Shown here: positions 1 through 13,374 of the stretch, piece after piece | Numbering within the stretch: position 1 is the stretch's first letter | Layout of the letters: the number at the start of each line of letters is the position of its first letter | Notes under the pieces: model-generated | Told to the model about the DNA's origin: nothing | The model's database searches: none | What the model saw: only the letters and a program-made list of their open reading frames with translations | Source of the DNA: a virus | Lineage: Duplodnaviria > Heunggongvirae > Uroviricota > Caudoviricetes | Strand: one strand, 5' to 3' | Length of the DNA stretch: 25,376 nt | IMG/VR virus record: IMGVR_UViG_648276644_000006 | Translations under genes and position numbers: made by a program

Positions 1-1053
1 TTACGGGGTAATGCCAACCGCTGCCGCCACTTTGTCGCCACTTGGCAGCGTTGCCAGAGGATTGAAACGGAGCGCCGTTTCCAGATGATCCGGTGCCAGA
101 TGTGCGTAACGCATAGTCATTTTTATATCGTGGTGTCCGAGAATTTTTTGTAAGGCCAGAATGTTTCCACCCGACATCATGAAGTGCGCCGCAAACGTAT
201 GGCGCAGAACGTGTGTGAGTTGACCGCGAGGGAGCACGATAGACGTTTTTTCCATCACGGATAAAAATTGAAAATAGCAGTCTGTGAAGAAATTGAACCC
301 ATCAAGCGCCATGATCTCTTCGTAAAGCTCTTTACTGATAGGGATGCTTCTGTTTTTCTTCCCCTTCGTTCTGACAAAGGTAATTCGGTATTTGGTCACC
401 TGTGAGCGAGTAAGATTTACGGCTTCACGCCAGCGTGCGCCTGTGCTTAAGCATATCTTAACTACCAGTGCCAGAATTGGGTCCTGACGTTTGCAATCAG
501 CCAGCAATTCAACAATCTGCTCATGGGTAAGCCATGCCATCTCTTTTTCTGCGATGGTGAATTTTCGCATGTTCTCCAGTGGGTTCGGATACGACCATTC
601 GCCCAGACGGGATAGTTCGCTAAAAACACTACTTAGATAGCTTTGCTCCAGGTTAATGGTGACCGGGCTTGCTCCTTTCTTCCATTTCTCGCTGAAGTAG
701 ATCTCGCCTGTCAGGCGTTTATCTCGATAGTGGGCAAACATTTTAGAGGTGAGATCGGTTGCAAGAGGATTGCCCAGAGCGTCAACCATCAACAGCAATT
801 TGTCATAGACATGCTGCCCAGCTGTCAGAGATTTACCATGTAGTTTGAACCATAGTTCAACCACGTCTTTCAGTGTTCGACGATCCACTGATTCACCCAG
901 CCAGGGCTTTGCTTCGGTTTCTTCCATCGTGTGACGCTCAAAAGCCAGAGCTTCGCCTTTGGTGGCGAATTGTTTACGCACACGACGTCCACTACGTCCG
1001 GCGGGGTAACATTCGCAAAGCCATTTTCCTGTGGTGAGTTTTCGTACTGCCAT
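1..1053 (-). CDS. int: Phage tyrosine integrase (P2/186 family), 350 aa, complete; stop codon at window bases 1-3
   Basis: Translation carries the conserved tyrosine-recombinase C-terminal region (CLSTGARWREA ... LRHTFAAHFMMSGGNILALQKILGHHDIKMTMRYAHLAP) and sits next to a leftward repressor gene as in P2-like prophages. Confidence 0.9.
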   Translation of the reverse strand: MAVRKLTTGKWLCECYPAGRSGRRVRKQFATKGEALAFERHTMEETEAKPWLGESVDRRTLKDVVELWFKLHGKSLTAGQHVYDKLLLMVDALGNPLATDLTSKMFAHYRDKRLTGEIYFSEKWKKGASPVTINLEQSYLSSVFSELSRLGEWSYPNPLENMRKFTIAEKEMAWLTHEQIVELLADCKRQDPILALVVKICLSTGARWREAVNLTRSQVTKYRITFVRTKGKKNRSIPISKELYEEIMALDGFNFFTDCYFQFLSVMEKTSIVLPRGQLTHVLRHTFAAHFMMSGGNILALQKILGHHDIKMTMRYAHLAPDHLETALRFNPLATLPSGDKVAAAVGITP

Positions 1054-1136: not shown

Positions 1137-2813
1137 CTAAGCAACATGCAGTTCATCGTTGGCGGAAGTTGCTGCTTTGCGCTCTTGCTCAATCGCCAGT
1201 GACTCTCTATATTCTTTCGCTTCCGCAAACATTGTCCATTGTGCGTTGATGTTCATATCTTCAATAACAGACTTAATTTCTTTAATATTTACGTTGAAAA
1301 ACTCTTTTCGTGAGTTAATTTTATTGACCTGTTTTTCGTTGAAGACTTTATGCAGATGATTTTCTAATGATGGTGCATCATCACTATAAATCATCGCATG
1401 AACATCGAACGAAAAAGGAACACTAGCATCACCGAGTTCACGAACACGATCAAGTGGTTCAAGGCGGCGTGTCATTCCAATTTTATATACATCTTCGCCA
1501 AATGAGCCAATATTACTAATTATATAAACGTGGCCTGATCTAGTTTGTTGAGCCATAGAAATAGCTCGTTGGTTTTTAGCTTCAGCTTCTTCATATTTTA
1601 ACTGTAGTTCAGCTATTTTTTGCTCTAAAGCTAAGCGTTGTTCTTCATTTGCAAGCATAAGCTCTTTTGTTGCTTTATTTATAGCTTGCTGAATAGCTTT
1701 CTCTTCTTTTTCAGCTTCTTTTATCGCTTTTTCATACTCCCTACGAGCTCTTTCCTCTTCACGAAGTTGTTCTTTAATCCTTCTTTGCTCTTCTTTTTCT
1801 TCGAGCATAATTTCATTAACTGCAACTCCCCATTTTAGCTCGTTGAGTCGAGCTTGAAGATAGATGTCACTTATTTTTGCGGACCTAAAGGCAGAACCAT
1901 TGTAATTTACAAGTTGAAACGCATCTTTTATCTCTTGGGAAAGTTTTCCAAAATTGTTGTGTTTGACTTTTGATAAAATACTGTCAACTCTTCCATTGAA
2001 GGCATCTAAAACAAAGTTGATAGCAGTATTACGCCTGTTTTGTTCAACATAATCACACGAAGCAGCTTTATTAGTTTTTATTAATGATTTTGTTAACTCC
2101 CTGGCTTTTTGTAATTCCTTACCTGCATCTGTAAACTCATAATTTTCTGCCAATTCATCGAGAACGCTACGGTTAGGGATGATCCATTCATCACCATAAC
2201 CTTCAATTTTATTTTTCATTGATTTGGCAACTGCTTCATATTTTTCTGCAAACTCTTTAGCTTCATATGCTGAACCAGCAATCTCTTTTGCTCTTTCTTC
2301 TGCATCGGAAATAATTTTCACTGCATTGTCATTAGCATTTGAGATCAGCTCATTTGCTTTACTATTGGCATTATCAAGACGTTCTTTAGCTTTCAGGCGT
2401 GCATCGCGAGCGTCTTTAGTAATTGCTATAGCTTCGCTATTAGCGTTGCTTATTTTTATCTGAGCTTGATAATTTGCTTCGTTTACTGTCTTAGCAGCCT
2501 TTATTTGGGCTTCTTCTATTTTTTGCTTGGCTATTGAGTCTGCATTTTTTATCTTATTCTCTGCTTCCATCACTGCGCTGTGCAATTCTACGTATTGCCA
2601 TAATGGCGCAGCTCGTCCTTCAAGCTCTGATAGATCTCGTACAGTCTGTGCTAATTCTTCTTGATTTTCTTTCAGTTGGTTGGAAAGGGCTATGTTGTTA
2701 GCTGTCAAGGTATTTATAGCCGCTTTATATTTTTTGCTTTGCTTAAATAATATTACAGCTAGAATGGGGGCGAGAAATGCTAATAAGAATATAACGATGG
2801 AAAATGAATTCAT
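1137..2813 (-). CDS. Cargo protein, 558 aa: N-terminal transmembrane anchor, long coiled-coil/low-complexity region, C-terminal T5orf172 (GIY-YIG-like nuclease superfamily) domain; DUF4041-like architecture; candidate superinfection-exclusion/defence protein
   Basis: Hydrophobic N-terminus MNSFSIVIFLLAFLAPILAVILF; Ala/Lys/Glu/Asn-rich heptad-like repeats; C-terminal motif GHVYIISNIGSFGEDVYKIGMTRRLEPLDRVRELGDASVPFSFDVHAMIYSDDAPSLENHLHKVFNEKQVNKINSRKEFFNV typical of T5orf172/MUG113 domains. Gene is strongly AT-rich by eye and starts 20 bp after the cI stop, with an AAGGA Shine-Dalgarno upstream. Confidence 0.75.
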   Translation of the reverse strand: MNSFSIVIFLLAFLAPILAVILFKQSKKYKAAINTLTANNIALSNQLKENQEELAQTVRDLSELEGRAAPLWQYVELHSAVMEAENKIKNADSIAKQKIEEAQIKAAKTVNEANYQAQIKISNANSEAIAITKDARDARLKAKERLDNANSKANELISNANDNAVKIISDAEERAKEIAGSAYEAKEFAEKYEAVAKSMKNKIEGYGDEWIIPNRSVLDELAENYEFTDAGKELQKARELTKSLIKTNKAASCDYVEQNRRNTAINFVLDAFNGRVDSILSKVKHNNFGKLSQEIKDAFQLVNYNGSAFRSAKISDIYLQARLNELKWGVAVNEIMLEEKEEQRRIKEQLREEERARREYEKAIKEAEKEEKAIQQAINKATKELMLANEEQRLALEQKIAELQLKYEEAEAKNQRAISMAQQTRSGHVYIISNIGSFGEDVYKIGMTRRLEPLDRVRELGDASVPFSFDVHAMIYSDDAPSLENHLHKVFNEKQVNKINSRKEFFNVNIKEIKSVIEDMNINAQWTMFAEAKEYRESLAIEQERKAATSANDELHVA

Positions 2814-2833: not shown

Positions 2834-3430
2834 TTAATTTGAAACTATTGTACTTCTTATACAAGCAACTACTTCAATATCAGAAAATGCACATTCAAAG
2901 CTATTCTCTGTACTTGTAATTTTAATCATACCTTTTGGAAGCTTTGTGATTTTTCGAATGGAATAGGTTCCGTCGATGTTGATTAACCAGTGCCCATCAA
3001 GTACTTCAGAAAATTTTTGATCACAAATGTATGTGACGAGCCCATCCTGAATAACAATTGGTGATGAAAGATTTGCAGGAAGAAATGATGAATCGAAGAC
3101 ATATGAACCATCTTCAATCATTTTGCCTGCGGTAAGGCGAAACTTGGCAAGCTCTTCTGTAGCTGCTGTCAGCGAGCTTTGCTTAAGGCCTTGCCCGGTG
3201 GTTAACCATTTCAGTGAGGTTCCTGTTTCAAGAGCACATTGGATTATCCAGTCTGCAGGAAACGTATCCCGCAAATACCTGTTCGCCAGAGTGCTTTTTG
3301 ATACTTCCAAGTGATCAGCTAAAGCCTGTCGTGTCGTAAAGCCATAAGCTTCGACTAATCGCTCAATCGCAGCCTTACCACCTTTATTGGGATTTATTTT
3401 GATCTCATTTGGGTACTTTGATGTTGACAT
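2834..3430 (-). CDS. cI: Phage CI repressor, 186-type (HTH N-terminal domain plus C-terminal oligomerisation domain), 198 aa
   Basis: ERLVEAYGFTTRQALADHLEVSKSTLANRYLRD ... CALETGTSLKWLTTGQG matches the 186 CI-type HTH domain family; leftward orientation next to int; divergent from the early operon. Confidence 0.85.
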   Translation of the reverse strand: MSTSKYPNEIKINPNKGGKAAIERLVEAYGFTTRQALADHLEVSKSTLANRYLRDTFPADWIIQCALETGTSLKWLTTGQGLKQSSLTAATEELAKFRLTAGKMIEDGSYVFDSSFLPANLSSPIVIQDGLVTYICDQKFSEVLDGHWLINIDGTYSIRKITKLPKGMIKITSTENSFECAFSDIEVVACIRSTIVSN

Positions 3431-5330: not shown

Positions 5331-6184
5331 GCACCATCTTGAAATGGGCGGGAAATAAAACCGCCGTAATGTCCGAACTGAAAAAACATCTTCCTGCTGG
5401 TCCGCGACTAGTTGAACCTTTCGCGGGTTCCTGTGCTGTGATGATGGAGACGGATTATCCCTGCTATCTGGTTGCGGATATTAATCCTGATTTAATCAAC
5501 CTCTATAAAAAGGTTGCCGCTGATTGTGAATCGTTTATATCTCGCGCCAAAGTTTTATTTGAGATCGCAAACAGGGAGGTGGCTTATTACAACATAAGGC
5601 AGGAGTTTAATTACTCAACTGAAATTACTGATTTCATGAAAGCGGTATATTTCCTGTATCTCAATCGTCACGGTTACCGTGGGTTATGTCGCTATAACAA
5701 GAGCGGGCATTTCAACATTCCCTACGGTAATTATAAAAATCCGTATTTCCCTGAAAAAGAAATTCGCGCTTTTGCAGAAAAAGCCCAGCGAGCAACGTTT
5801 ATCTGCGCCAGCTTTGATGAAACGCTGGCGATGTTGAAGGCGGGGGATGTGGTGTATTGCGATCCGCCTTATGACGGTACGTTTTCCGGCTATCACGCTG
5901 ACGGCTTTACTGAAGATGACCAGTATCACCTGGCATCCGTTCTTGAACATCGGTCATCAGAAGGACATCCGGTCATTGTTTCTAACAGTGACACATCCCT
6001 GATCCGTTCGCTGTATCGCAATTTTACTCACCACTATATCAAGGTAAAACGCAGCATCGGCGTAGCAGCTGGTGAGAGTAAATCAGCAAAAGAAATCATT
6101 GCTGTTTCCGGGCCGCGCTGCTGGGTGGGATTTGATTATTCGCGTGGCGTGGATAGTTCTGCCGTGTACGGAGTACGTGCATGA
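5327..6184 (+). CDS. dam: Orphan DNA adenine (N6) methyltransferase, Dam family, 285 aa
   Basis: N-terminal SAM-binding region (LKWAGNK ... [10 protein letters not shown]) and the catalytic DPPY motif (VYCDPPYDG) line up with E. coli Dam; no adjacent restriction endonuclease gene; GGAGG Shine-Dalgarno before ATG 5327. Confidence 0.9.
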
Positions 6185-8034
6185 GCCATGCCGATATGAG
6201 CAACTGCTGCGGCTTTAACGAGGCTGCCGCATCGTTCTCATGGAACAGCCCGAAAAAGGCCATTAACCCTTATCTGGACCCGGCGGAAGTTGCGCCGGTT
6301 TCTGCGCTTTCAAACCTGATCACTCTGTACGCTGCCGATAACGAGCAGGAACAACTGCGCCGCGAGGCACTGAGTGATCAGGTCTGGGAGCGTTATTTCT
6401 TTAATGAATCCCGTGATCCTGTCCAACGCGAAATAGAGCAGGATAAGCTCATTAGCCGGGCAAAGTTGGCGCATGAGCAGCAGCGTTTTAACCCGGACAT
6501 GGTCATTCTGGCAGACGTCAGCGCCCAGCCCTCCCATATCAGCAAGCCGCTGATGCAACGTATTGAATACTTCAGCAGCCTGGGCAGGCCAAAGGCTTAT
6601 TCCCGCTATTTACGTGAGACGATTAAGCCATGTCTGGAACGACTGGAGCATGTACGCGACAGCCAGCTATCTGCATCTTTTCGTTTTATGGCAAGCCATG
6701 TAGGGCTGGACGGCCTGCTGATTCTGCCTGAAATGAGTCAGGATCAGGTGAAACGCCTGTCTACCCTTGTCGCTGCGCATATGAGCATGTGCCTTGATGC
6801 AGCTTGTGGTGATTTGTATGCCACCGATGACGTTAAGCCAGAAGAAATCCGCAAGACATGGGAAAAGGTGGCAGCGGAAACCCTGCGTCTGGATGTCATC
6901 CCGCCTGCGTTTGAGCAACTCCGTCGGAAAAGAAACCGCCGTAAACCCGTGCCCTATGAACTCATTCCGGGTTCGCTGGCGCGTATGTTGTGCGCCGACT
7001 GGTGGTACCGGAAATTATGGAAAATGCGTTGCGAATGGCGGGAAGAGCAGTTGCGTGCTGTCTGCCTGGTCAGCAAAAAAGCATCTCCCTATGTCAGCTA
7101 TGAAGCCGTGATGCATAAACGTGAGCAGCGCCGCAAGTCACTGGAGTTTTTCCGTTCTCATGAACTGGTGAACGAAGAGGGCGACACGCTGGATATGGAA
7201 GACGTGGTAAACGCCAGCAGCAGCAACCCGGCGCACCGCCGCAATGAGATGATGGCCTGTGTTAAAGGTCTGGAGCTTATCGCGGAAATGCGCGGTGACT
7301 GCGCCGTTTTCTACACCATTACCTGTCCGTCACGTTTCCATTCCACGCTCAATAACGGCAGACCAAACCCAACCTGGACAAATGCGACGGTAAGACAAAG
7401 CAGCGATTATCTGGTCGGCATGTTTGCTGCATTTCGTAAGGCGATGCACAAAGCCGGGTTGCGCTGGTATGGCGTGCGGGTGGCTGAGCCGCATCATGAC
7501 GGTACAGTTCACTGGCACCTGTTGTGTTTCATGCGCAAAAAAGACCGCCGCGCCATTACTGCATTGTTGCGTAAGTTTGCCATCCGTGAAGACCGCGAGG
7601 AACTGGGTAATAACACTGGTCCACGCTTTAAATCTGAGCTGATAAACCCGCGCAAAGGAACGCCGACAAGCTACATCGCGAAATACATCAGTAAGAACAT
7701 TGACGGGCGTGGTCTGGCTGGCGAGATCAGCAAGGAAACGGGTAAATCCCTGCGTGATAACGCTGAATACGTTAATGCCTGGGCGTCTCTGCATCGTGTT
7801 CAGCAATTCCGCTTCTTTGGTATTCCGGGACGTCAGGCTTACCGTGAACTTCGCTTGCTGGCTGGTCAGGCGGCAAGGCAACAGGGTGACAAAAAGCAGG
7901 TGCGCCGGTACTGGATAACCCGCGTCTTGATGCCATTCTGGCTGCTGCTGATGCTGGTGTTTTGCCACCTACATCATGAAGCAGGGCGGCGTACTGGTTC
8001 CCCGCAAATATCACCTCATCAGAACCGCTTATGA
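6181..8034 (+). CDS. A: Replication initiation endonuclease A (P2 gpA / 186 A family, rolling-circle initiator), N-terminal and central part; reading frame is lost near 7895
   Basis: 617-aa ORF in the A position after dam, with the gpA-like catalytic region (HWHLLCF, tyrosine-rich YIAKYISKN segment). The last roughly 45 codons ([26 protein letters not shown]...) look like out-of-frame translation. Confidence 0.8.
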
Positions 8035-8593
8035 AATCAACGAAGAGCCAACCGCCTATGGCGATCACGGTATTCGTATTTATGGCATCTGGTCACCCAT
8101 TGCAGAGGGCAAGATCTGCACTCATGCAGTGAAGTGGAAAATGGTTCGTAAGGCCGTTGACGTTCAGGAGGCGGCAGCCGACCAGGGCGCTTGCGCCCCT
8201 TGGACTCGTGGCAATAACTGTCCCCTTGCTGAAAATTTGAACCAACAGGAGAAAGATAAATCAGCTGATGGGGACCCCAGAACGGACATTACCAGCATGG
8301 ATGACAAGGAGTTGCACGATTACCTGCACAGTATGAGCAAAAAAGAGCGCCGGGAACTGGCAGCAAGGTTACGCCTGGTGAAACCGAAACGGCGTAAAGA
8401 CTACAAACAGCGAATTACAGACCATCAGCGACTGCAGCTCGTGTATGAGCTGAAGTCCAGAGGATTTGATGGCAGCGAGAAAGAGGTTGATTTACTCCTT
8501 CGCGGAGGCAGTATTCCGTCAGGAGCAGGCCTGCGTATCTTCTATCGGAACCAGCGTTTGCAGGAAGATGATCAGTGGCGGAACCTGTATTAA
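7976..8593 (+). CDS. A: C-terminal portion of replication protein A, encoded in a different frame from the upstream A ORF (frameshifted gene or sequencing error)
   Basis: 205-aa ORF overlapping the end of the 6181-8034 ORF in another frame; combined length of the two pieces is in the range of intact A proteins; the third frame across 7890-7976 is also open and protein-like. Confidence 0.6.
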
Positions 8594-8746: not shown

Positions 8747-8935
8747 ATGCAGGACTATTTTTTGGAGTCTTTGAAGCTCCAGCGCATTGATTTTTTTCTT
8801 AAGCTTGTAGCGGCTAGTGAGTGTAGTGATGAAGAGAAGGGGCTGGCTTTGCAGTGGGTTTCTGAACTAACAGATGAACTCATGGCAAAAATCAGAACCC
8901 ACGAATACAACCGCTCAATGGATGTCATCAGTTGA
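8747..8935 (+). CDS. Small SOS-regulated hypothetical protein, 62 aa (possible Tum-like antirepressor position)
   Basis: Strong AGGAGGA Shine-Dalgarno 4-6 nt upstream of ATG 8747, downstream of the LexA box; the longer 96-aa ORF from 8645 would start upstream of the box and is less likely. Confidence 0.45.
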   Translation: MQDYFLESLKLQRIDFFLKLVAASECSDEEKGLALQWVSELTDELMAKIRTHEYNRSMDVIS

Positions 8936-8945
8936 GGTGACTTTT

Positions 8946-9179
8946 ATGCGCATTGAAATAATGATCGATAAAGAGCAGAAGATTAGCCAGTCTATCCTGG
9001 ACGCCCTTGAATCCGAGCTTTACCGCAATCTGCGCCCCCTGTATCCCAAAACGGTAATCCGTATCCGTAAAGGTAGCTCTAACGGTGTGGAACTTACCGG
9101 ACTGCAACTGGACGAAGAAAGAAAACAAGTGATGAAAATTATGCAGAAAGTGTGGGAAGACGACAGCTGGCTGCATTAA
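8946..9179 (+). CDS. DinI-family protein (SOS-response modulator of RecA), 77 aa
   Basis: MRIEIMIDKEQKISQSILDALESELYRNL ... VWEDDSWL resembles DinI/MsgA (MRIEV..., acidic WxxxDxW tail); GAGGTG Shine-Dalgarno before ATG 8946. Confidence 0.8.
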   Translation: MRIEIMIDKEQKISQSILDALESELYRNLRPLYPKTVIRIRKGSSNGVELTGLQLDEERKQVMKIMQKVWEDDSWLH

Positions 9180-9371
9180 GAAACGTTGCCCCCAAGAGGA
9201 TTCATTCGAATGGGGGCTAGTTTGGGCAATGAGTGAAATAAGGCGTAAGGCGTAAGGTGGGGGGGCATTTTGATAAATGATCGTCCGCTTTGTGCCAGAA
9301 GCGAACGTTTCTTCTGCTATCTTTCGTCAATTAACGAATGGCAGACTAATTTGCAACGGATAATCTGAATT

Positions 9372-9399
9372 TTGTAAGATTATGGGTATTCCTATAATA
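9372..9399 (+). promoter_or_regulatory. Putative sigma70 promoter for the KAP NTPase gene: -35 TTGTAA, 16-bp spacer, -10 TATAAT
   Basis: Perfect -10 hexamer at 9394-9399 with a 4/6 -35 at 9372-9377, about 100 bp upstream of the first in-frame ATG of the KAP gene. Confidence 0.35.
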
Positions 9400-9507
9400 T
9401 TTACCAATAATAACCTTACAATGTACACTACCTATTGAATTTTCCATAGTTGGCCTTTGGCTCTACTTACCATCTATGTTTATGTATTTTATCAAAATGG
9501 ACTAAAA

Positions 9508-11400
9508 ATGCACAATACGTACATCAAAGACTATATAGAATATTACCTTAGCCTTAAAACTGAACCTCAATACGCCATTATGCTTAAAGGTGCTTGGGGA
9601 TCAGGTAAAACTTGGTTCATTGAACGAGTTCTTGAAGAATATAAGCAAAAGCATTCAGAGTTCAAATTTCTTAAAGTGAGTTTGTATGGCGTCAACTCTA
9701 TTGAGCAGATTGAAGATGAGTTCTATCGTCAACTTCATCCTATTCTATCAAACAAAGCCCTTATCTTTGGTGCAAATGTACTAAAAAATACGCTTAAGGC
9801 TACTTTCAAGATCGATTTCAATGGCGATAATAAGTCTGACGTAGATGTCAATGCCAGTGTCCCCACCATTAATCTTAGCGACTTTAGCAGAGAACCAGAT
9901 GGTTTTGTGCTGGTCTTTGATGATATCGAGAGAGCTGGTATAGATTTACCAATCTTATTTGGATATATAAATCACTTTGTAGAAGTAAACGGATACAAAG
10001 CGATCCTGGTTGCCAATGAAGAAGAAATAATCAACAGAGAAAAGCGAATAAATAATGATGATGAGAAATCTAGCAGTGAATACATAAGAACAAAAGAAAA
10101 GCTTGTAGGTAAAACATTTGAAGTAACGTCAGATTTACCTAGTGCTTGTAATGTTTTCTTGGGCGTAATTAGTAGTTTACACGTAGCTAATATATTTAAA
10201 GAAGATATGCAGACCATAGAACACCTCTATGTGTCGGCGAAATATAATAATCTAAGACATTTGAGGCAGTTCTTTCTTGATGTACAACGCATCATTTCCC
10301 TTTTGGGAGATAAATATGTCAGCAACGACGATTTTATGAAAGTATTTTTCCAGCAGTTATTAATTTTCTCGATGGAGTACCGGGGAGGGAACCTTAACTA
10401 CGAGGATTTCAATTCAATCGGCAATGTAAATTATAGTATGTTTTTAGATAAAGGGCGTACCAAAACTAAGTATGACATGATCGTCGAGAAATATTCATCA
10501 CCTGTATTAACCGAGACGTTACTGGATGGTGCGTACTGGAGAGAGCTAATCTGTGATGGAAAGGTAACGCATGATCTTCTCGCTCAGCTGGATATTACGC
10601 GATTTTTTAGAAGCACCGATGCCCAAGCATGGGAGTATTTGTGGAACTATCGAGAACTTAATGAAACTATGCTTAATGAACAGTACGCCATTGCCAAGGA
10701 TAATCTATTTTCAGGTAAGATCACTTCCTTAGGTGAACTCCTGATGACCGCGAGTATTTTGCTGGCATTGGCGAAAGAAGGTTTAACCACAGATGCTGTT
10801 GATGACATTATAAATGAGACAAAACATCATATAGATATTTATTACAATGGATTAGGACCTGAAGATATACATCAGGAGTATGCGCAAAGACATTATAATG
10901 AGTTAATGGCATGGCGTGGCTTTGGTTTTCTTGACAGGGATAGCGATGAATTCAAACTCATTATTGAGCATATTAAGATAGCGCAGAAGAAACGGTTTGA
11001 TGAATCAATTCCGGAGTTTGCATTGAAGTTCAGCGATGAGTTGCAAAGAGGGAATTTATCGTTTGTATCTGAATTGTGTCATTCTAATAATAGGCAGCTA
11101 AATCTTCATAACGTGCCTTTTTTACACTTGGTTTCTCCTGAAGTTTTCATTGAAAGCTATAGGAAACTTGACCCAATCATCATGAGGAAACTGGCATTTA
11201 GCTTGAGGGATCGTTATTCTGATAGGGATGCCAGAACCAGACTGACCGAAGAATACAACTGGTTGATTAGCCTAAAAGAGATAGCTGTAGATTTCACTCA
11301 AAACGCAGCCAATAACTCCTTTCAGGTTTTTCATGTAAAGTTTTTTATTGACTATGCACTAACTAATGCAATCAAATTATTTACTGAGGGAACTGATTAA
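9508..11400 (+). CDS. KAP-family P-loop NTPase, about 630 aa (start uncertain; an alternative TTG lies at 9457); candidate defence/cargo gene
   Basis: N-terminal Walker A in the KAP-type form GAWGSGKT (LKGAWGSGKTWFIERV); a hydrophobic stretch followed by two acidic residues (FVLVFDDIERAG), Walker B-like; large size; gene and flanks are conspicuously AT-rich compared with the phage backbone. Confidence 0.65.
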   Translation: MHNTYIKDYIEYYLSLKTEPQYAIMLKGAWGSGKTWFIERVLEEYKQKHSEFKFLKVSLYGVNSIEQIEDEFYRQLHPILSNKALIFGANVLKNTLKATFKIDFNGDNKSDVDVNASVPTINLSDFSREPDGFVLVFDDIERAGIDLPILFGYINHFVEVNGYKAILVANEEEIINREKRINNDDEKSSSEYIRTKEKLVGKTFEVTSDLPSACNVFLGVISSLHVANIFKEDMQTIEHLYVSAKYNNLRHLRQFFLDVQRIISLLGDKYVSNDDFMKVFFQQLLIFSMEYRGGNLNYEDFNSIGNVNYSMFLDKGRTKTKYDMIVEKYSSPVLTETLLDGAYWRELICDGKVTHDLLAQLDITRFFRSTDAQAWEYLWNYRELNETMLNEQYAIAKDNLFSGKITSLGELLMTASILLALAKEGLTTDAVDDIINETKHHIDIYYNGLGPEDIHQEYAQRHYNELMAWRGFGFLDRDSDEFKLIIEHIKIAQKKRFDESIPEFALKFSDELQRGNLSFVSELCHSNNRQLNLHNVPFLHLVSPEVFIESYRKLDPIIMRKLAFSLRDRYSDRDARTRLTEEYNWLISLKEIAVDFTQNAANNSFQVFHVKFFIDYALTNAIKLFTEGTD

Positions 11401-11462
11401 CATTTTGTTGATTAACATAGGTAATATTATTAGAAGTACTAGACATGGTCAGTAAAATTATT

Positions 11463-11490
11463 AAAGTCCGCTTCGCTCGAAGCGGACTTT
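11463..11490. terminator. Hairpin terminator downstream of the KAP NTPase gene (perfect 13-bp inverted repeat)
   Basis: aaagtccgcttcg ct cgaagcggacttt; GC-rich stem with T-rich flanks on both strands, so it could terminate in either direction. Confidence 0.5.
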
Positions 11491-11685
11491 GTGCTTTATA
11501 AAAACGAGAGTTTTGTTTTTCAAGCGGTCATTCGGTTACGGGATTTCACTTCCCCCGTAAGTGCATGACTATGCCGCATGAGATCGCATGATCGTTTGCG
11601 GATCGTTTTTGCTAAGGTCCGCCAGAACTGGCGGGCTTTTGCGTAGATCATGCAGGTGCATGAAAACCACTACATAAAGTGGGCA

Positions 11686-11704
11686 GGCGTGGCGGGGATA
11701 CGAG
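11686..11704 (+). other. cos-like motif (putative cohesive-end site of a P2/186-type genome)
   Basis: GGCGTGGCGGGGATACGAG shares its first 13 nt with the 186 cohesive-end sequence GGCGTGGCGGGGAAAGCAT as I recall it (P2: GGCGAGGCGGGGAAAGCAC); lies in the expected interval between the right-arm cargo and portal gene Q. Confidence 0.3.
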
Positions 11705-11834
11705 CGCGCGCTAACTCTTGGCTTTGTTTCATAATCAAAAATGTGATCATTGAGATTATTCTTAATTTTATGTTTGTCTATGAAATATCATTTCGCTTAA
11801 CATTGTTTGAGTTAGGACTACATGAGAATAAAGA

Positions 11835-12410
11835 ATGCTTTTACCCGTAAGTGTTACATCGTGTGGCTTGTATCACCCCTACTGGCATTTGGGAGAGCGC
11901 AACCCTCATAGCGATGAACTATCAAGGCAGATGATGGATTTTAAGGATGAAAATAATCGTAATCATCAAAGGGCTATTAACCGTTTTTCTCGATTAGCTA
12001 TAGATAAGGTTGGGCGGTTAGTAATCAGAGGTGGCGGTGGGCGTTTTGTTGAGTCTCCTTTTTCGATAGCAGTCGTCCCATCTCACACTGAAGGCAGAAT
12101 TTCACCGGCTTTGATTGAGGTCGCCGAGCGAATCGTAAATGTTCACCGTCGGGGCATTGTTGATTGCTGTTTGGAAAGAACACGCACTGTTCCTAGCGCA
12201 CATCGTGAAGGAGGAGATCGCTCAATTACTGGTCACATGTCTAGTATCAGAGTTAGGGGTGGTAACCTCATGGGGCGAAATGTGTTACTACTAGATGATG
12301 TTAAAACAACAGGCGGTAGTTTGTCTGCGTGTTTTTATTTACTGGAGTCTGCAGGAGCTGGAGTTATAATGCCATTAGCTCTGCTAGAAACTGCAAACTA
12401 TGAGGAGTAG
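11835..12410 (+). CDS. Phosphoribosyltransferase (PRTase) domain protein, ComF-like, 191 aa (start uncertain; in-frame ATGs also at 11931 and 11934)
   Basis: Canonical PRPP-binding loop VLLLDDVKTTGGSLSAC near the C-terminus; glycine-rich loop RGGGGR upstream; stop overlaps the start of the next gene. Confidence 0.7.
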   Translation: MLLPVSVTSCGLYHPYWHLGERNPHSDELSRQMMDFKDENNRNHQRAINRFSRLAIDKVGRLVIRGGGGRFVESPFSIAVVPSHTEGRISPALIEVAERIVNVHRRGIVDCCLERTRTVPSAHREGGDRSITGHMSSIRVRGGNLMGRNVLLLDDVKTTGGSLSACFYLLESAGAGVIMPLALLETANYEE

Positions 12411-13374
12411 CAAAGTGCACTCAGAAGAATTAAAAAATACACTTGGATTAGCTATTCAAATCGGGAAGCTAGCATCTGATCAAAGTGTATTGAAATTCTT
12501 TGAGCTTATTGATTTTGATGTTATTCGTGATATACGCGACTTAACTGAGATGGTTAATAGCCACGGGTTTCTAAAAGATAAAATATCTGAGACTGATTTT
12601 CTAATAGCGAATGCTGAATTGGAGAACCACCATGTTAATGGTGTGGAGCTAATACCATATGGGTCTGAATTCTATCCTCTTAGTTTAGCGTTTACTCCTA
12701 ATCCACCATCAATTCTCTACATAAAAGGGGATAAAAGTATACTAAAAGAATTGCCGGGTGTCGCAATTGTAGGATCCCGTGATACTTCCCCTGCAGGGGA
12801 AGAAATAACGAGGCGAATCACTAATCAGATAGTGTCTGCTGGGTATATTGTTGTAAGTGGGTTAGCAATAGGCACTGATGCGAATGCTCATAAGGCAACG
12901 TTACAAGCAAAAGGAAAAACCATTGCTGTCTTGGCGCATGGTCTTGAGGAGGCTAAGCCGAAGCAAAACAGTCGACTTGCTCAAGAGATTCTGGATAAAG
13001 GTGGTGCATGGATTTCTGAGTATCCTATGGGGCGACCGGCCCAGAAACAATCATTTGTACAAAGAAATCGGATACAAGTTGGATTATCTGCAGGTTCAAT
13101 TTTAATCGAGGCTGCGTTAAATAGCGGAACGATAACTCAAGCTGAGTTTGCAAATAAGGCGAAAAGACCAGTGTTTGCGGTTGTACCTCACCTACCTAAT
13201 AATCCGCTTAATCTTAATTGTGAGGGAACAGTTGATTTAGTTAAGAGCAACATGGCTAGAGCGTTAAAAACAAAACGGGATTATGATGATGTGATTATGA
13301 TCATAAATGAGTCTCGGGAGTATTTGTTAGAGCTAAAATGGCCAGGGAAACAGAGTACATTAGACTTGATTTAA
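12400..13374 (+). CDS. DprA/Smf-like (SLOG/Rossmann-fold DNA-processing protein A family) protein, 324 aa
   Basis: YPLSLAFTPNPPSILYIKGDKSILKELPGVAIVGSRDTSPAGEE ... VVSGLAIGTDANAHKATLQAKGKTIAVLAHGLEE ... QRNRIQVGLSAGSILIEAALNSGTITQAEFANKAKRPVFAV follows the DprA domain pattern (PP-LF-GxxxxL; VAIVGSR; SGxAxGxDxxAH; TIAVLxxGL; RNRI; SGTxxTAxxA). ATG 12400 overlaps the PRTase stop by 11 nt (ATGAGGAGTAG); an alternative GTG at 12415 has a GAGGAG Shine-Dalgarno. Confidence 0.8.
   Translation: MRSSKVHSEELKNTLGLAIQIGKLASDQSVLKFFELIDFDVIRDIRDLTEMVNSHGFLKDKISETDFLIANAELENHHVNGVELIPYGSEFYPLSLAFTPNPPSILYIKGDKSILKELPGVAIVGSRDTSPAGEEITRRITNQIVSAGYIVVSGLAIGTDANAHKATLQAKGKTIAVLAHGLEEAKPKQNSRLAQEILDKGGAWISEYPMGRPAQKQSFVQRNRIQVGLSAGSILIEAALNSGTITQAEFANKAKRPVFAVVPHLPNNPLNLNCEGTVDLVKSNMARALKTKRDYDDVIMIINESREYLLELKWPGKQSTLDLI

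Follow-up and report, generated by a model that had tools for sequence, protein, structure and literature searches.

Prophages related to P2 carry changing genes next to their cos site, and a gene found there raises two questions: whether it forms a unit of its own, and what it would do for the lysogen. Here we address both for an AT-rich block in a 25,376-nucleotide stretch of DNA from the IMG/VR viral record IMGVR_UViG_648276644_000006 (the window, in which all positions are counted). According to open reading frame (ORF) calls, profile searches and locus comparison, the window is a P2/186/Fels-2-type prophage, and the only ORF of its AT-rich block runs on the plus strand from an ATG at 9508 to a stop codon at 11400, encoding a KAP-family P-loop NTPase of 630 amino acids (aa) that is annotated in RefSeq as the identical protein WP_000552034. 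The comparisons presented below indicate that ~9283-11490 is a self-contained accessory cassette (a "moron") occupying the first of two variable slots that flank cos. With moderate confidence, we propose that its product is a lysogen-expressed, single-protein, ATP-dependent anti-phage (superinfection-defence) factor in which a solenoid sensor would be coupled to a KAP switch, with no fused effector.

Limits and modularity of the KAP cassette

The composition of the KAP block is clearly foreign: between 9190 and 11559 the GC content is 0.371 vs 0.563 in the late genes, and the GC content at third codon positions (GC3) is 0.37 in the KAP gene vs 0.57-0.70 in the late genes. An earlier reading of the bare sequence (hereafter the first-pass annotation) had described a sharp shift to AT-rich DNA at about 9300 and a return after a hairpin located 3' of the ORF. 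The AT-rich block is real, but its edges are less simple, since GC is already down at 0.42 in the orf/DinI segment before 9190, recovers only across a 158-bp cos box at 11560-11717 (GC 0.544), drops to 0.41 over the 1.7 kb that follow the box (ShosTA), and is back at the backbone value only past ~13,500.

For the comparison of loci we used 5426 complete Escherichia coli genomes, ~1268 of which carry a prophage with these flanks. In blastn alignments against the related loci L002 and L004, the left flank stops at 9189 and the right flank resumes at 11560-11563, and the comparison of the interval between genes A and Q across relatives thereby sets the insertion limits at 9189 and 11560. In the "empty" relative L002, 68 bp stand in place of 9190-11559, and in other relatives this slot 1 holds TIR, LA2681 HEPN, HNH, DUF4145, DUF2971 or DUF8087-type genes, the first five of which are defence-type occupants. 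Homology breaks again at 11711-11717, just beyond the cos core, so that there are two slots split by the conserved cos box, the KAP gene lying in slot 1 and ShosTA, a PRTase/DprA pair, in slot 2; the box itself is 88-97% identical among loci with unrelated cargo on both sides. The gene order gpA, DinI, KAP ORF, cos, gpQ also places the ORF, between gpA/DinI and the cos-like core, at the cos-proximal position where P2 carries old and tin, as had been proposed from the sequence.

The contents of the two slots do not travel together. Across cos, the KAP gene is accompanied by ShosTA in the window and in L017, by a 223-aa hypothetical protein in L001, by ParA and SIR2 in L011, and by a RES-domain protein in L012, and published tables add AIPR as a further partner (PMC9122126); the gene is thus paired with at least five different cargos. 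Furthermore, from 8851 to 11600 the window shows 100% identity to E. coli 22AR0118, and from 11851 on it shows 99.6-100% identity to E. coli DETEC-E601, but only 89-96% to the left arm of the latter strain. The window is therefore a recombinant whose breakpoint lies at the cos box (11560-11850), and slots 1 and 2 recombine independently.

The gene is also found beyond P2-like prophages. Homologues with 76-78% protein identity occur in lambdoid prophages of Serratia, where the copy adjoins int at icd and lies beside an HNH gene, and of Edwardsiella, where it lies in the early-left region adjoining a DUF2971 gene; other homologues are located in a plasmid or integrative and conjugative element-like leading region, and in the nin region of Providencia. 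Since the non-coding homology of the Serratia and Edwardsiella copies starts near 9287 and ends near 11490 (~220 bp upstream and ~90 bp downstream of the gene), the mobile unit would extend over ~9283-11490, close to the limits of 9300 and 11500 first suggested. Taken together, the empty site, the changing partners across cos, the recombinant structure at cos and the presence of the same gene in lambdoid prophages favor the view of the first-pass annotation that this is a cargo cassette distinct from the PRTase/DprA pair.

A pattern search revealed that the unit has a hairpin motif, GTCCGCTT-N6-8-AAGCGRAC, at either end: GTCCGCTT-TGTGCCAG-AAGCGAAC at 9283, and GTCCGCTT-CGCTCG-AAGCGGAC at 11466 (to 11487). 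The left copy is weakly terminator-like, folding at -10.4 kcal/mol (z-score -1.7); it marks where the unit moving with the KAP gene begins on the left, and it may terminate the early operon. The right copy is contained in the perfect 13-bp inverted repeat that had been noticed 3' of the ORF and that was recovered with 13-nt arms, 100% complementary and 2 nt apart. This second hairpin folds at -20 kcal/mol (z-score -5.7, with 0 of 200 shuffles equally stable), is terminator-like on both strands, and is kept in degenerate form 3' of the gene in the Serratia and Edwardsiella copies. In other strains, the junctions of TIR and DUF8087-type cargos fall in or beside the hairpins (at 9295 and 11471 in L003, and at 9302 and 11467 in L098). 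A synthetic query joining the two hairpin halves yielded no uninterrupted site in the 5426 E. coli genomes, its best matches carrying ~580 bp of DUF8087-type cargo, and a repeat search with a seed length of 9 gave no flanking direct repeats or attachment (att)-like sites. The paired hairpins would be insulating terminators alone or crossover points as well.

A further hairpin, GCCCCC...GGGGGC, lies at 9188-9217, directly after the stop codon of the DinI-like gene (-17.8 kcal/mol, z-score -3.0). It is common to loci with KAP, TIR and DUF8087-type cargo, is not present in the empty-site type, and could be where the early operon terminates.

As expected for a moron, the cassette has its own predicted terminator in the 3' hairpin. 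With regard to a promoter of its own, the ~220 bp of conserved upstream DNA move with the KAP gene. A near-consensus promoter, TTGTAA-16-TATAAT, had been described in this upstream DNA. Both hexamers are indeed present (at 9372 and 9393), but they are separated by 15 bp instead of 16, a sub-optimal spacing, and the site is absent from the output of a consensus promoter scan that requires a spacer of 16-18 bp. Nor are the hexamers conserved in relatives: they differ between E. coli alleles (TTGTTA in L012, TATAAA in L011), and neither is present at the corresponding position in the copies of Serratia and Edwardsiella. The region shows no enrichment of promoter-like sites (10 vs 14.1 expected), and we regard this site as a plausible predicted promoter of the KAP gene. 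The best-conserved upstream non-coding block, AATTAACGAATGGCAGAC, is a candidate regulatory site. The leader that precedes the ATG shows only 2-3 differences per ~110 nt between alleles whose synonymous divergence (dS) is 0.13-0.31, and its segment 9457-9507 is identical across these three alleles; its predicted RNA fold is no better than that of shuffles (z-score -0.05), and an Rfam scan of 9100-11900 returned sub-threshold noise only. A TTG at 9457 was considered as an alternative start, which would extend the protein with a hydrophobic 17-aa N-terminus; it was rejected, as the N-termini of homologues align to the ATG at 9508, the start also annotated in RefSeq.

The KAP protein: architecture, conservation and prevalence

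The single ~630-aa ORF with a KAP-type Walker A motif (GAWGSGKT, aa 28-35) reported by the first-pass annotation was recovered as such, and its product is a member of the KAP family. It matches the Pfam profile PF07693 (KAP_NTPase) over aa 4-262 and profile positions 3-289 of 293 with an expectation value (E) of 2e-21 and 76.9 bits, the gathering cut-off being 20, and besides Walker A it has a Walker B motif at aa 134-142 (VLVFDDIER), in agreement with the family patterns GxxGxGKT and hhhhDDxxR. In an alignment of 47 homologues, W30, G31, G33 and K34 of Walker A and F137, D138, D139, E141 and R142 of Walker B are invariant, as are E197, K198, N248, L249, R250, E290, W375, L378, W379, R569, Y570 and E582, and 90% or more of the sequences share N170.

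Two or four transmembrane helices in or near the NTPase domain are typical of the KAP family, though not universal, PifA being without them. In the protein studied here, hydropathy revealed no transmembrane helix (maximum 19-residue Kyte-Doolittle value of 1.49), nor any hydrophobic stretch between Walker A and Walker B. The place of the helices of classical KAP proteins is occupied by an insert (aa 76-122) in which L76, H77, P78, K83, K97, D103, D107 and P119 are conserved, and whose residues 80-122 have a predicted local distance difference test (pLDDT) score below 50 in the structural model.

The NTPase domain is followed by an all-alpha, solenoid-like domain of 368 residues (aa 263-630), for which Pfam searches at E up to 10 returned no domain. 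No nuclease, protease, NADase or membrane domain was detected in the KAP protein. The AlphaFold2 model of the protein has a pLDDT of 83, and when the full-length model was compared with PDB structures in Foldseek, its matches were weak and of a generic AAA+/STAND kind (E ~1e-3 to 1e-2), including ORC4, Cdc6, DnaA, RFC, RADAR RdrA, and NLRs such as NLRC4 and NLRP9; these matches point to an ATPase core that is AAA+/STAND-like. At the sequence level, the 47-sequence profile found no match in the PDB at E up to 1, NCBIfam holds no family for the protein, and the match in PHROGs (phrog_4740, E 1.6e-65) is labeled as of unknown function.

A database search at E up to 1e-3 recovered 333 homologues, from Enterobacterales, Burkholderia, Pseudomonas, Methylobacter and metagenomes, which stay full length (~610-650 aa) down to ~28% identity. 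In distant homologues, the solenoid diverges faster than the ATPase (~20% vs ~30% identity). When the C-terminal domain alone was searched against 1.84 billion representatives, it matched 693 or more protein clusters (50% identity), and in the best 150 of these 693 the domain stands behind the same KAP domain, or the sequence is a fragment. The architecture is fixed, without any trace of domain shuffling or of an effector fusion that would suggest a function. We infer that aa 263-630 serve as a sensor or partner-binding domain.

In E. coli, the KAP gene was found in 46 of the 5426 complete genomes, that is, in 46 of the ~1268 with this prophage flank type. All 46 copies are full length, single-copy and chromosomal, and they fall into three allele classes of at least 99%, ~94% and ~90% identity. 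The ratio of nonsynonymous to synonymous substitution rates (dN/dS) is 0.21-0.29 overall, 0.20-0.24 for the ATPase and 0.20-0.36 for the C-terminal half, indicating purifying selection on an intact gene.

In IMG/VR, 131 viral contigs encode relatives. Distant relatives lying at contig ends were initially taken as cos-terminal, which proved wrong: in the two that were checked, the gene is directly downstream of int at the prophage end. These two IMG/VR loci (L061, 5965-7758, and L086, 5989-7755) are CI-int P2/186-like prophages with a distant KAP-like NTPase (22-24% identity, ~590 aa), whose gene immediately follows that of the integrase and apparently belongs to the lysogenic operon. A different, distantly related KAP NTPase, WP_023147874, is present in the other slot, from cos to gpQ, of E. 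coli WCHEC020031 (L005, 5017-6861); it is 24% identical over the N-terminal 176 aa, matches the PADLOC family PDC-S49 with E 7e-28, and lies beside a protein with an HsdR N-terminal domain.

Candidate function and related systems

Profile searches assign the ORF to a defence candidate and not to a core phage function. The KAP protein is a member of PDC-S49 (PDLC05031, E 5.6e-161, profile positions 5-615 of 624; PDLC05029, E 7.5e-153), a single-gene system whose neighbors differ in every context examined, with no conserved partner. The status of PADLOC candidate (PDC) is based on association with defence islands. The interval in question, cos-proximal between gpA and gpQ, is a published defence hotspot of P2, which itself carries old and tin there (PMC9122126), and WP_000552034 is listed as "KAP_NTPase" hotspot cargo with varying neighbors in Table S5 of that study (PMC9122126, Rousset et al. 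2022). With other cargo of this hotspot the KAP gene shares the gpA-gpQ interval adjoining cos and a high turnover, but its sequence is unrelated to old (OLD nuclease) or tin.

In the mechanism that we propose, the lysogen would make a soluble two-part protein consisting of an N-terminal KAP ATPase and a C-terminal alpha-solenoid, and the solenoid would recognize a phage-made protein or complex. ATP binding and hydrolysis, through Walker A, Walker B and the conserved arginines, would cause the protein to switch its conformation or its oligomeric state, and this switch would block infection without a fused enzymatic effector. Because the protein is devoid of nuclease, protease, NADase and membrane domains, the phage target would probably be sequestered or remodeled directly, or the envelope or nucleotide pool affected in a PifA-like manner. 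We hold with almost the same confidence as the full proposal that the KAP gene is a defence gene. A bolder version, which we consider doubtful, would be an effector-less NLR-like sensor using a KAP mechanism not yet described (e.g., one that uses ATP to capture or take apart a complex of phage replication or packaging), with the paired GTCCGCTT...AAGCGRAC hairpins serving as crossover points between P2-like and lambdoid phages.

Several points weigh against a defensive role. Location alone is no proof of it, because about a quarter of the P2 hotspot loci carry non-defence cargo, e.g., partition systems (PMC9122126), and the KAP gene is not among the systems cloned in that study, whose Table S2 contains no "KAP" (PMC9122126). 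We found no published experiment on the PDC-S49 family, a name that appears in no searchable paper. The surroundings of some distant homologues do not clearly suggest defence, as in Burkholderia, where the gene is flanked by MarR and GST genes. No effector domain is detectable in the KAP protein, and its expression in the lysogen is assumed, because the promoter is only predicted and its hexamers are not conserved.

Abortive infection, which would still be defence, is the rival that survives best, although we find it unlikely: the ATPase would be a toxin that stays latent until a trigger makes it kill or arrest the host, e.g., through ATP depletion or membrane leakage as with PifA. PifA, by which the F plasmid excludes T7, is a KAP member that lacks transmembrane helices, and it acts via membrane depolarization and nucleotide leakage (PMC13001434); both proteins are single KAP ATPases without transmembrane helices on a mobile element. 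Since no effector is fused to the KAP protein, the NTPase itself could be the effector, and two cargos of the same prophage, ShosTA and PD-Lambda-1, are toxin-type systems. However, the match to the PifA profile is confined to the P-loop of the KAP protein (E 0.005, aa 18-57), the C-terminal domains differ, and the KAP protein shows no membrane segment and no evidence of membrane action. Moreover, the one mechanistically probed single-gene KAP defence, the EF_KAP type of Enterococcus, is not abortive, because it confers equal protection at low and high multiplicity of infection (PMC13552941).

EF_KAP, a KAP domain fused to an uncharacterized C-terminal region, has relatives in metagenomes and defends its host by a mechanism in which both Walker B and the C-terminal region are needed (PMC13552941). 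It resembles the KAP protein in being encoded by a single gene and in having a KAP ATPase followed by a region of 300-370 aa with no known fold; it differs in its two transmembrane helices (none here), its hosts, and the marker used for its discovery, a small serine recombinase. Another single-gene KAP-like system, Reve (pFD425), which belongs to the P4 hotspot, gives E. coli strong protection against phages such as Drexlerviridae (PMC13586616); compared by description, Reve and the KAP protein both find their best structural matches in the ORC ATPase module. The STAND/NLR-like Avs proteins and RdrA of RADAR also share the arrangement of an ATPase core followed by a helical-repeat domain, in line with the weak fold matches to NLRC4, NLRP9 and RdrA rings. 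In contrast to these, the KAP protein has neither an N- or C-terminal effector nor an RdrB-like partner, and belongs to KAP and not to NACHT/NB-ARC in Pfam; the tripartite Avs-type architecture is absent, as Walker A starts at aa 28 and leaves no room for an N-terminal effector.

A role in the life cycle of the phage itself or in counter-defence, whether as an accessory ATPase of replication or packaging, an anti-P4 factor, or an inhibitor of host immunity, is improbable. The fold does resemble the initiator and loader AAA+ proteins ORC, Cdc6, DnaA and RFC, the KAP gene lies ~290 bp from the cos core, and QatA, the KAP protein of qatABCD, multimerizes and binds DNA. The KAP protein itself gave no QatA profile match at E up to 0.01, and no neighbors qatB, qatC (QueC-like) or qatD (TatD-like) were present in the window or in the related loci examined. 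The small fraction of flank-type genomes with the gene argues against such a role, as do the 68 bp or unrelated genes that fill the slot in relatives, the occurrence of the gene in lambdoid prophages and non-phage islands with other replication and packaging systems, and the PHROGs listing of the family under unknown function.

Eukaryotic KAP proteins are signalling scaffolds, which would fit a lysogenic-conversion cargo unrelated to phages (stress, signalling or virulence). This last alternative, or a selfish passenger without benefit, is the least probable: the P2 hotspot does hold partition systems and a cytolethal distending toxin (PMC9122126), but the neighbors of homologues are repeatedly defence-type (HNH restriction-like, DUF3800/PDC-M04A-like, DUF2971, BrnTA), the candidate status of the family derives from defence islands, and purifying selection with 46 of 46 intact copies speaks against a passenger.

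Features of the prophage and significance of the locus

The coordinates of the cassette and of the prophage genes around it are compiled in Table 1.

Table 1. Features of the KAP cassette and of the surrounding prophage (positions in the window).
Feature	Position	Strand	Basis or remark
Integrase	1-1053	-	
PD-Lambda-1 (T5orf172/DUF4041) gene	1137-2813	-	
CI repressor	2834-3430	-	
Dam methylase, then replication protein gpA	between CI repressor and DinI-like gene		
Small conserved ORF and DinI-like gene	DinI-like gene ends at 9179		
Variable slot 1 of the cos-proximal hotspot	9190-11559		blastn vs L002 and L004
Left hairpin motif GTCCGCTT-TGTGCCAG-AAGCGAAC	9283-9306	+	motif search
Best-conserved upstream non-coding block AATTAACGAATGGCAGAC	9329-9346	+	conserved, bar 1-2 changes, among E. 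coli alleles and the lambdoid copies of Serratia and Edwardsiella
Promoter-like site, TTGTAA (9372), 15 bp, TATAAT (9393)	9372-9398	+	read from sequence
Leader upstream of ATG	9399-9507	+	conservation far above synonymous sites of the gene
KAP ORF	9508-11400	+	
Walker A GAWGSGKT, aa 28-35	9589-9612	+	read from sequence
Insert in NTPase domain, aa 76-122	9733-9873	+	polar, conserved, modeled as disordered
Walker B VLVFDDIER, aa 134-142	9907-9933	+	homologue alignment
C-terminal all-alpha, solenoid-like domain, aa 263-630	10294-11397	+	
Perfect 13-bp inverted repeat, then T-rich tract	11463-11490		repeat search and folding
Conserved cos box (core 11686-11704)	11560-11717		context, outside the cassette
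cos-like core GGCGTGGCGGGGATACGAG	11686-11704		between KAP ORF and ShosTA
ShosT and ShosA (PRTase/DprA pair)	11835-13374		
Portal gpQ	after ShosTA	-	
Terminase gpP	after ShosTA	-	
Late genes	after ShosTA		

Besides the KAP gene, the prophage carries an AT-rich cargo gene between the integrase and the CI repressor (GC 0.367, GC3 0.27), which encodes a protein with the domains T5orf172/MUG113 and DUF4041 and with a match to PD-Lambda-1 of PADLOC (E 5e-120). The PRTase/DprA pair beyond cos matches the profiles of ShosT (E 3.6e-14) and ShosA (E 2.8e-70), and this DprA and PRTase system (ShosTA) was validated from the cos-proximal hotspot of P2 (PMC9122126); in the RefSeq record of the near-identical locus L017, the DprA gene is annotated and the PRTase ORF is omitted. 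With the PD-Lambda-1 gene, the KAP gene and ShosTA, the prophage therefore harbors three separate defence-type cargos. The gpA gene is split into two ORFs (6181-8034 and 7976-8593) by two single-base deletions with respect to the intact 805-aa homologue of L001, located at ~7890 and ~7957, one reducing an A-run from A6 to A5 and the other TT to T; either the prophage is replication-defective, or these deletions are homopolymer sequencing errors.

Regarding the significance of these findings, novelty is low because the hotspot, the family and the exact protein are already in published catalogues, and the current understanding is left unchanged. What this locus adds to the published P2 hotspot is its division into two slots that are split by the 158-bp cos box and assort independently, which bears on how prophages shuffle their immune cargo. 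If its defensive role were confirmed, the KAP protein would represent a compact (1.9 kb), widely distributed KAP ATPase acting alone with no membrane anchor, and it would offer a convenient model for the sensing and blocking of phages by KAP NTPases, a field that studies of PifA, EF_KAP, QatA and Reve are just beginning to open.

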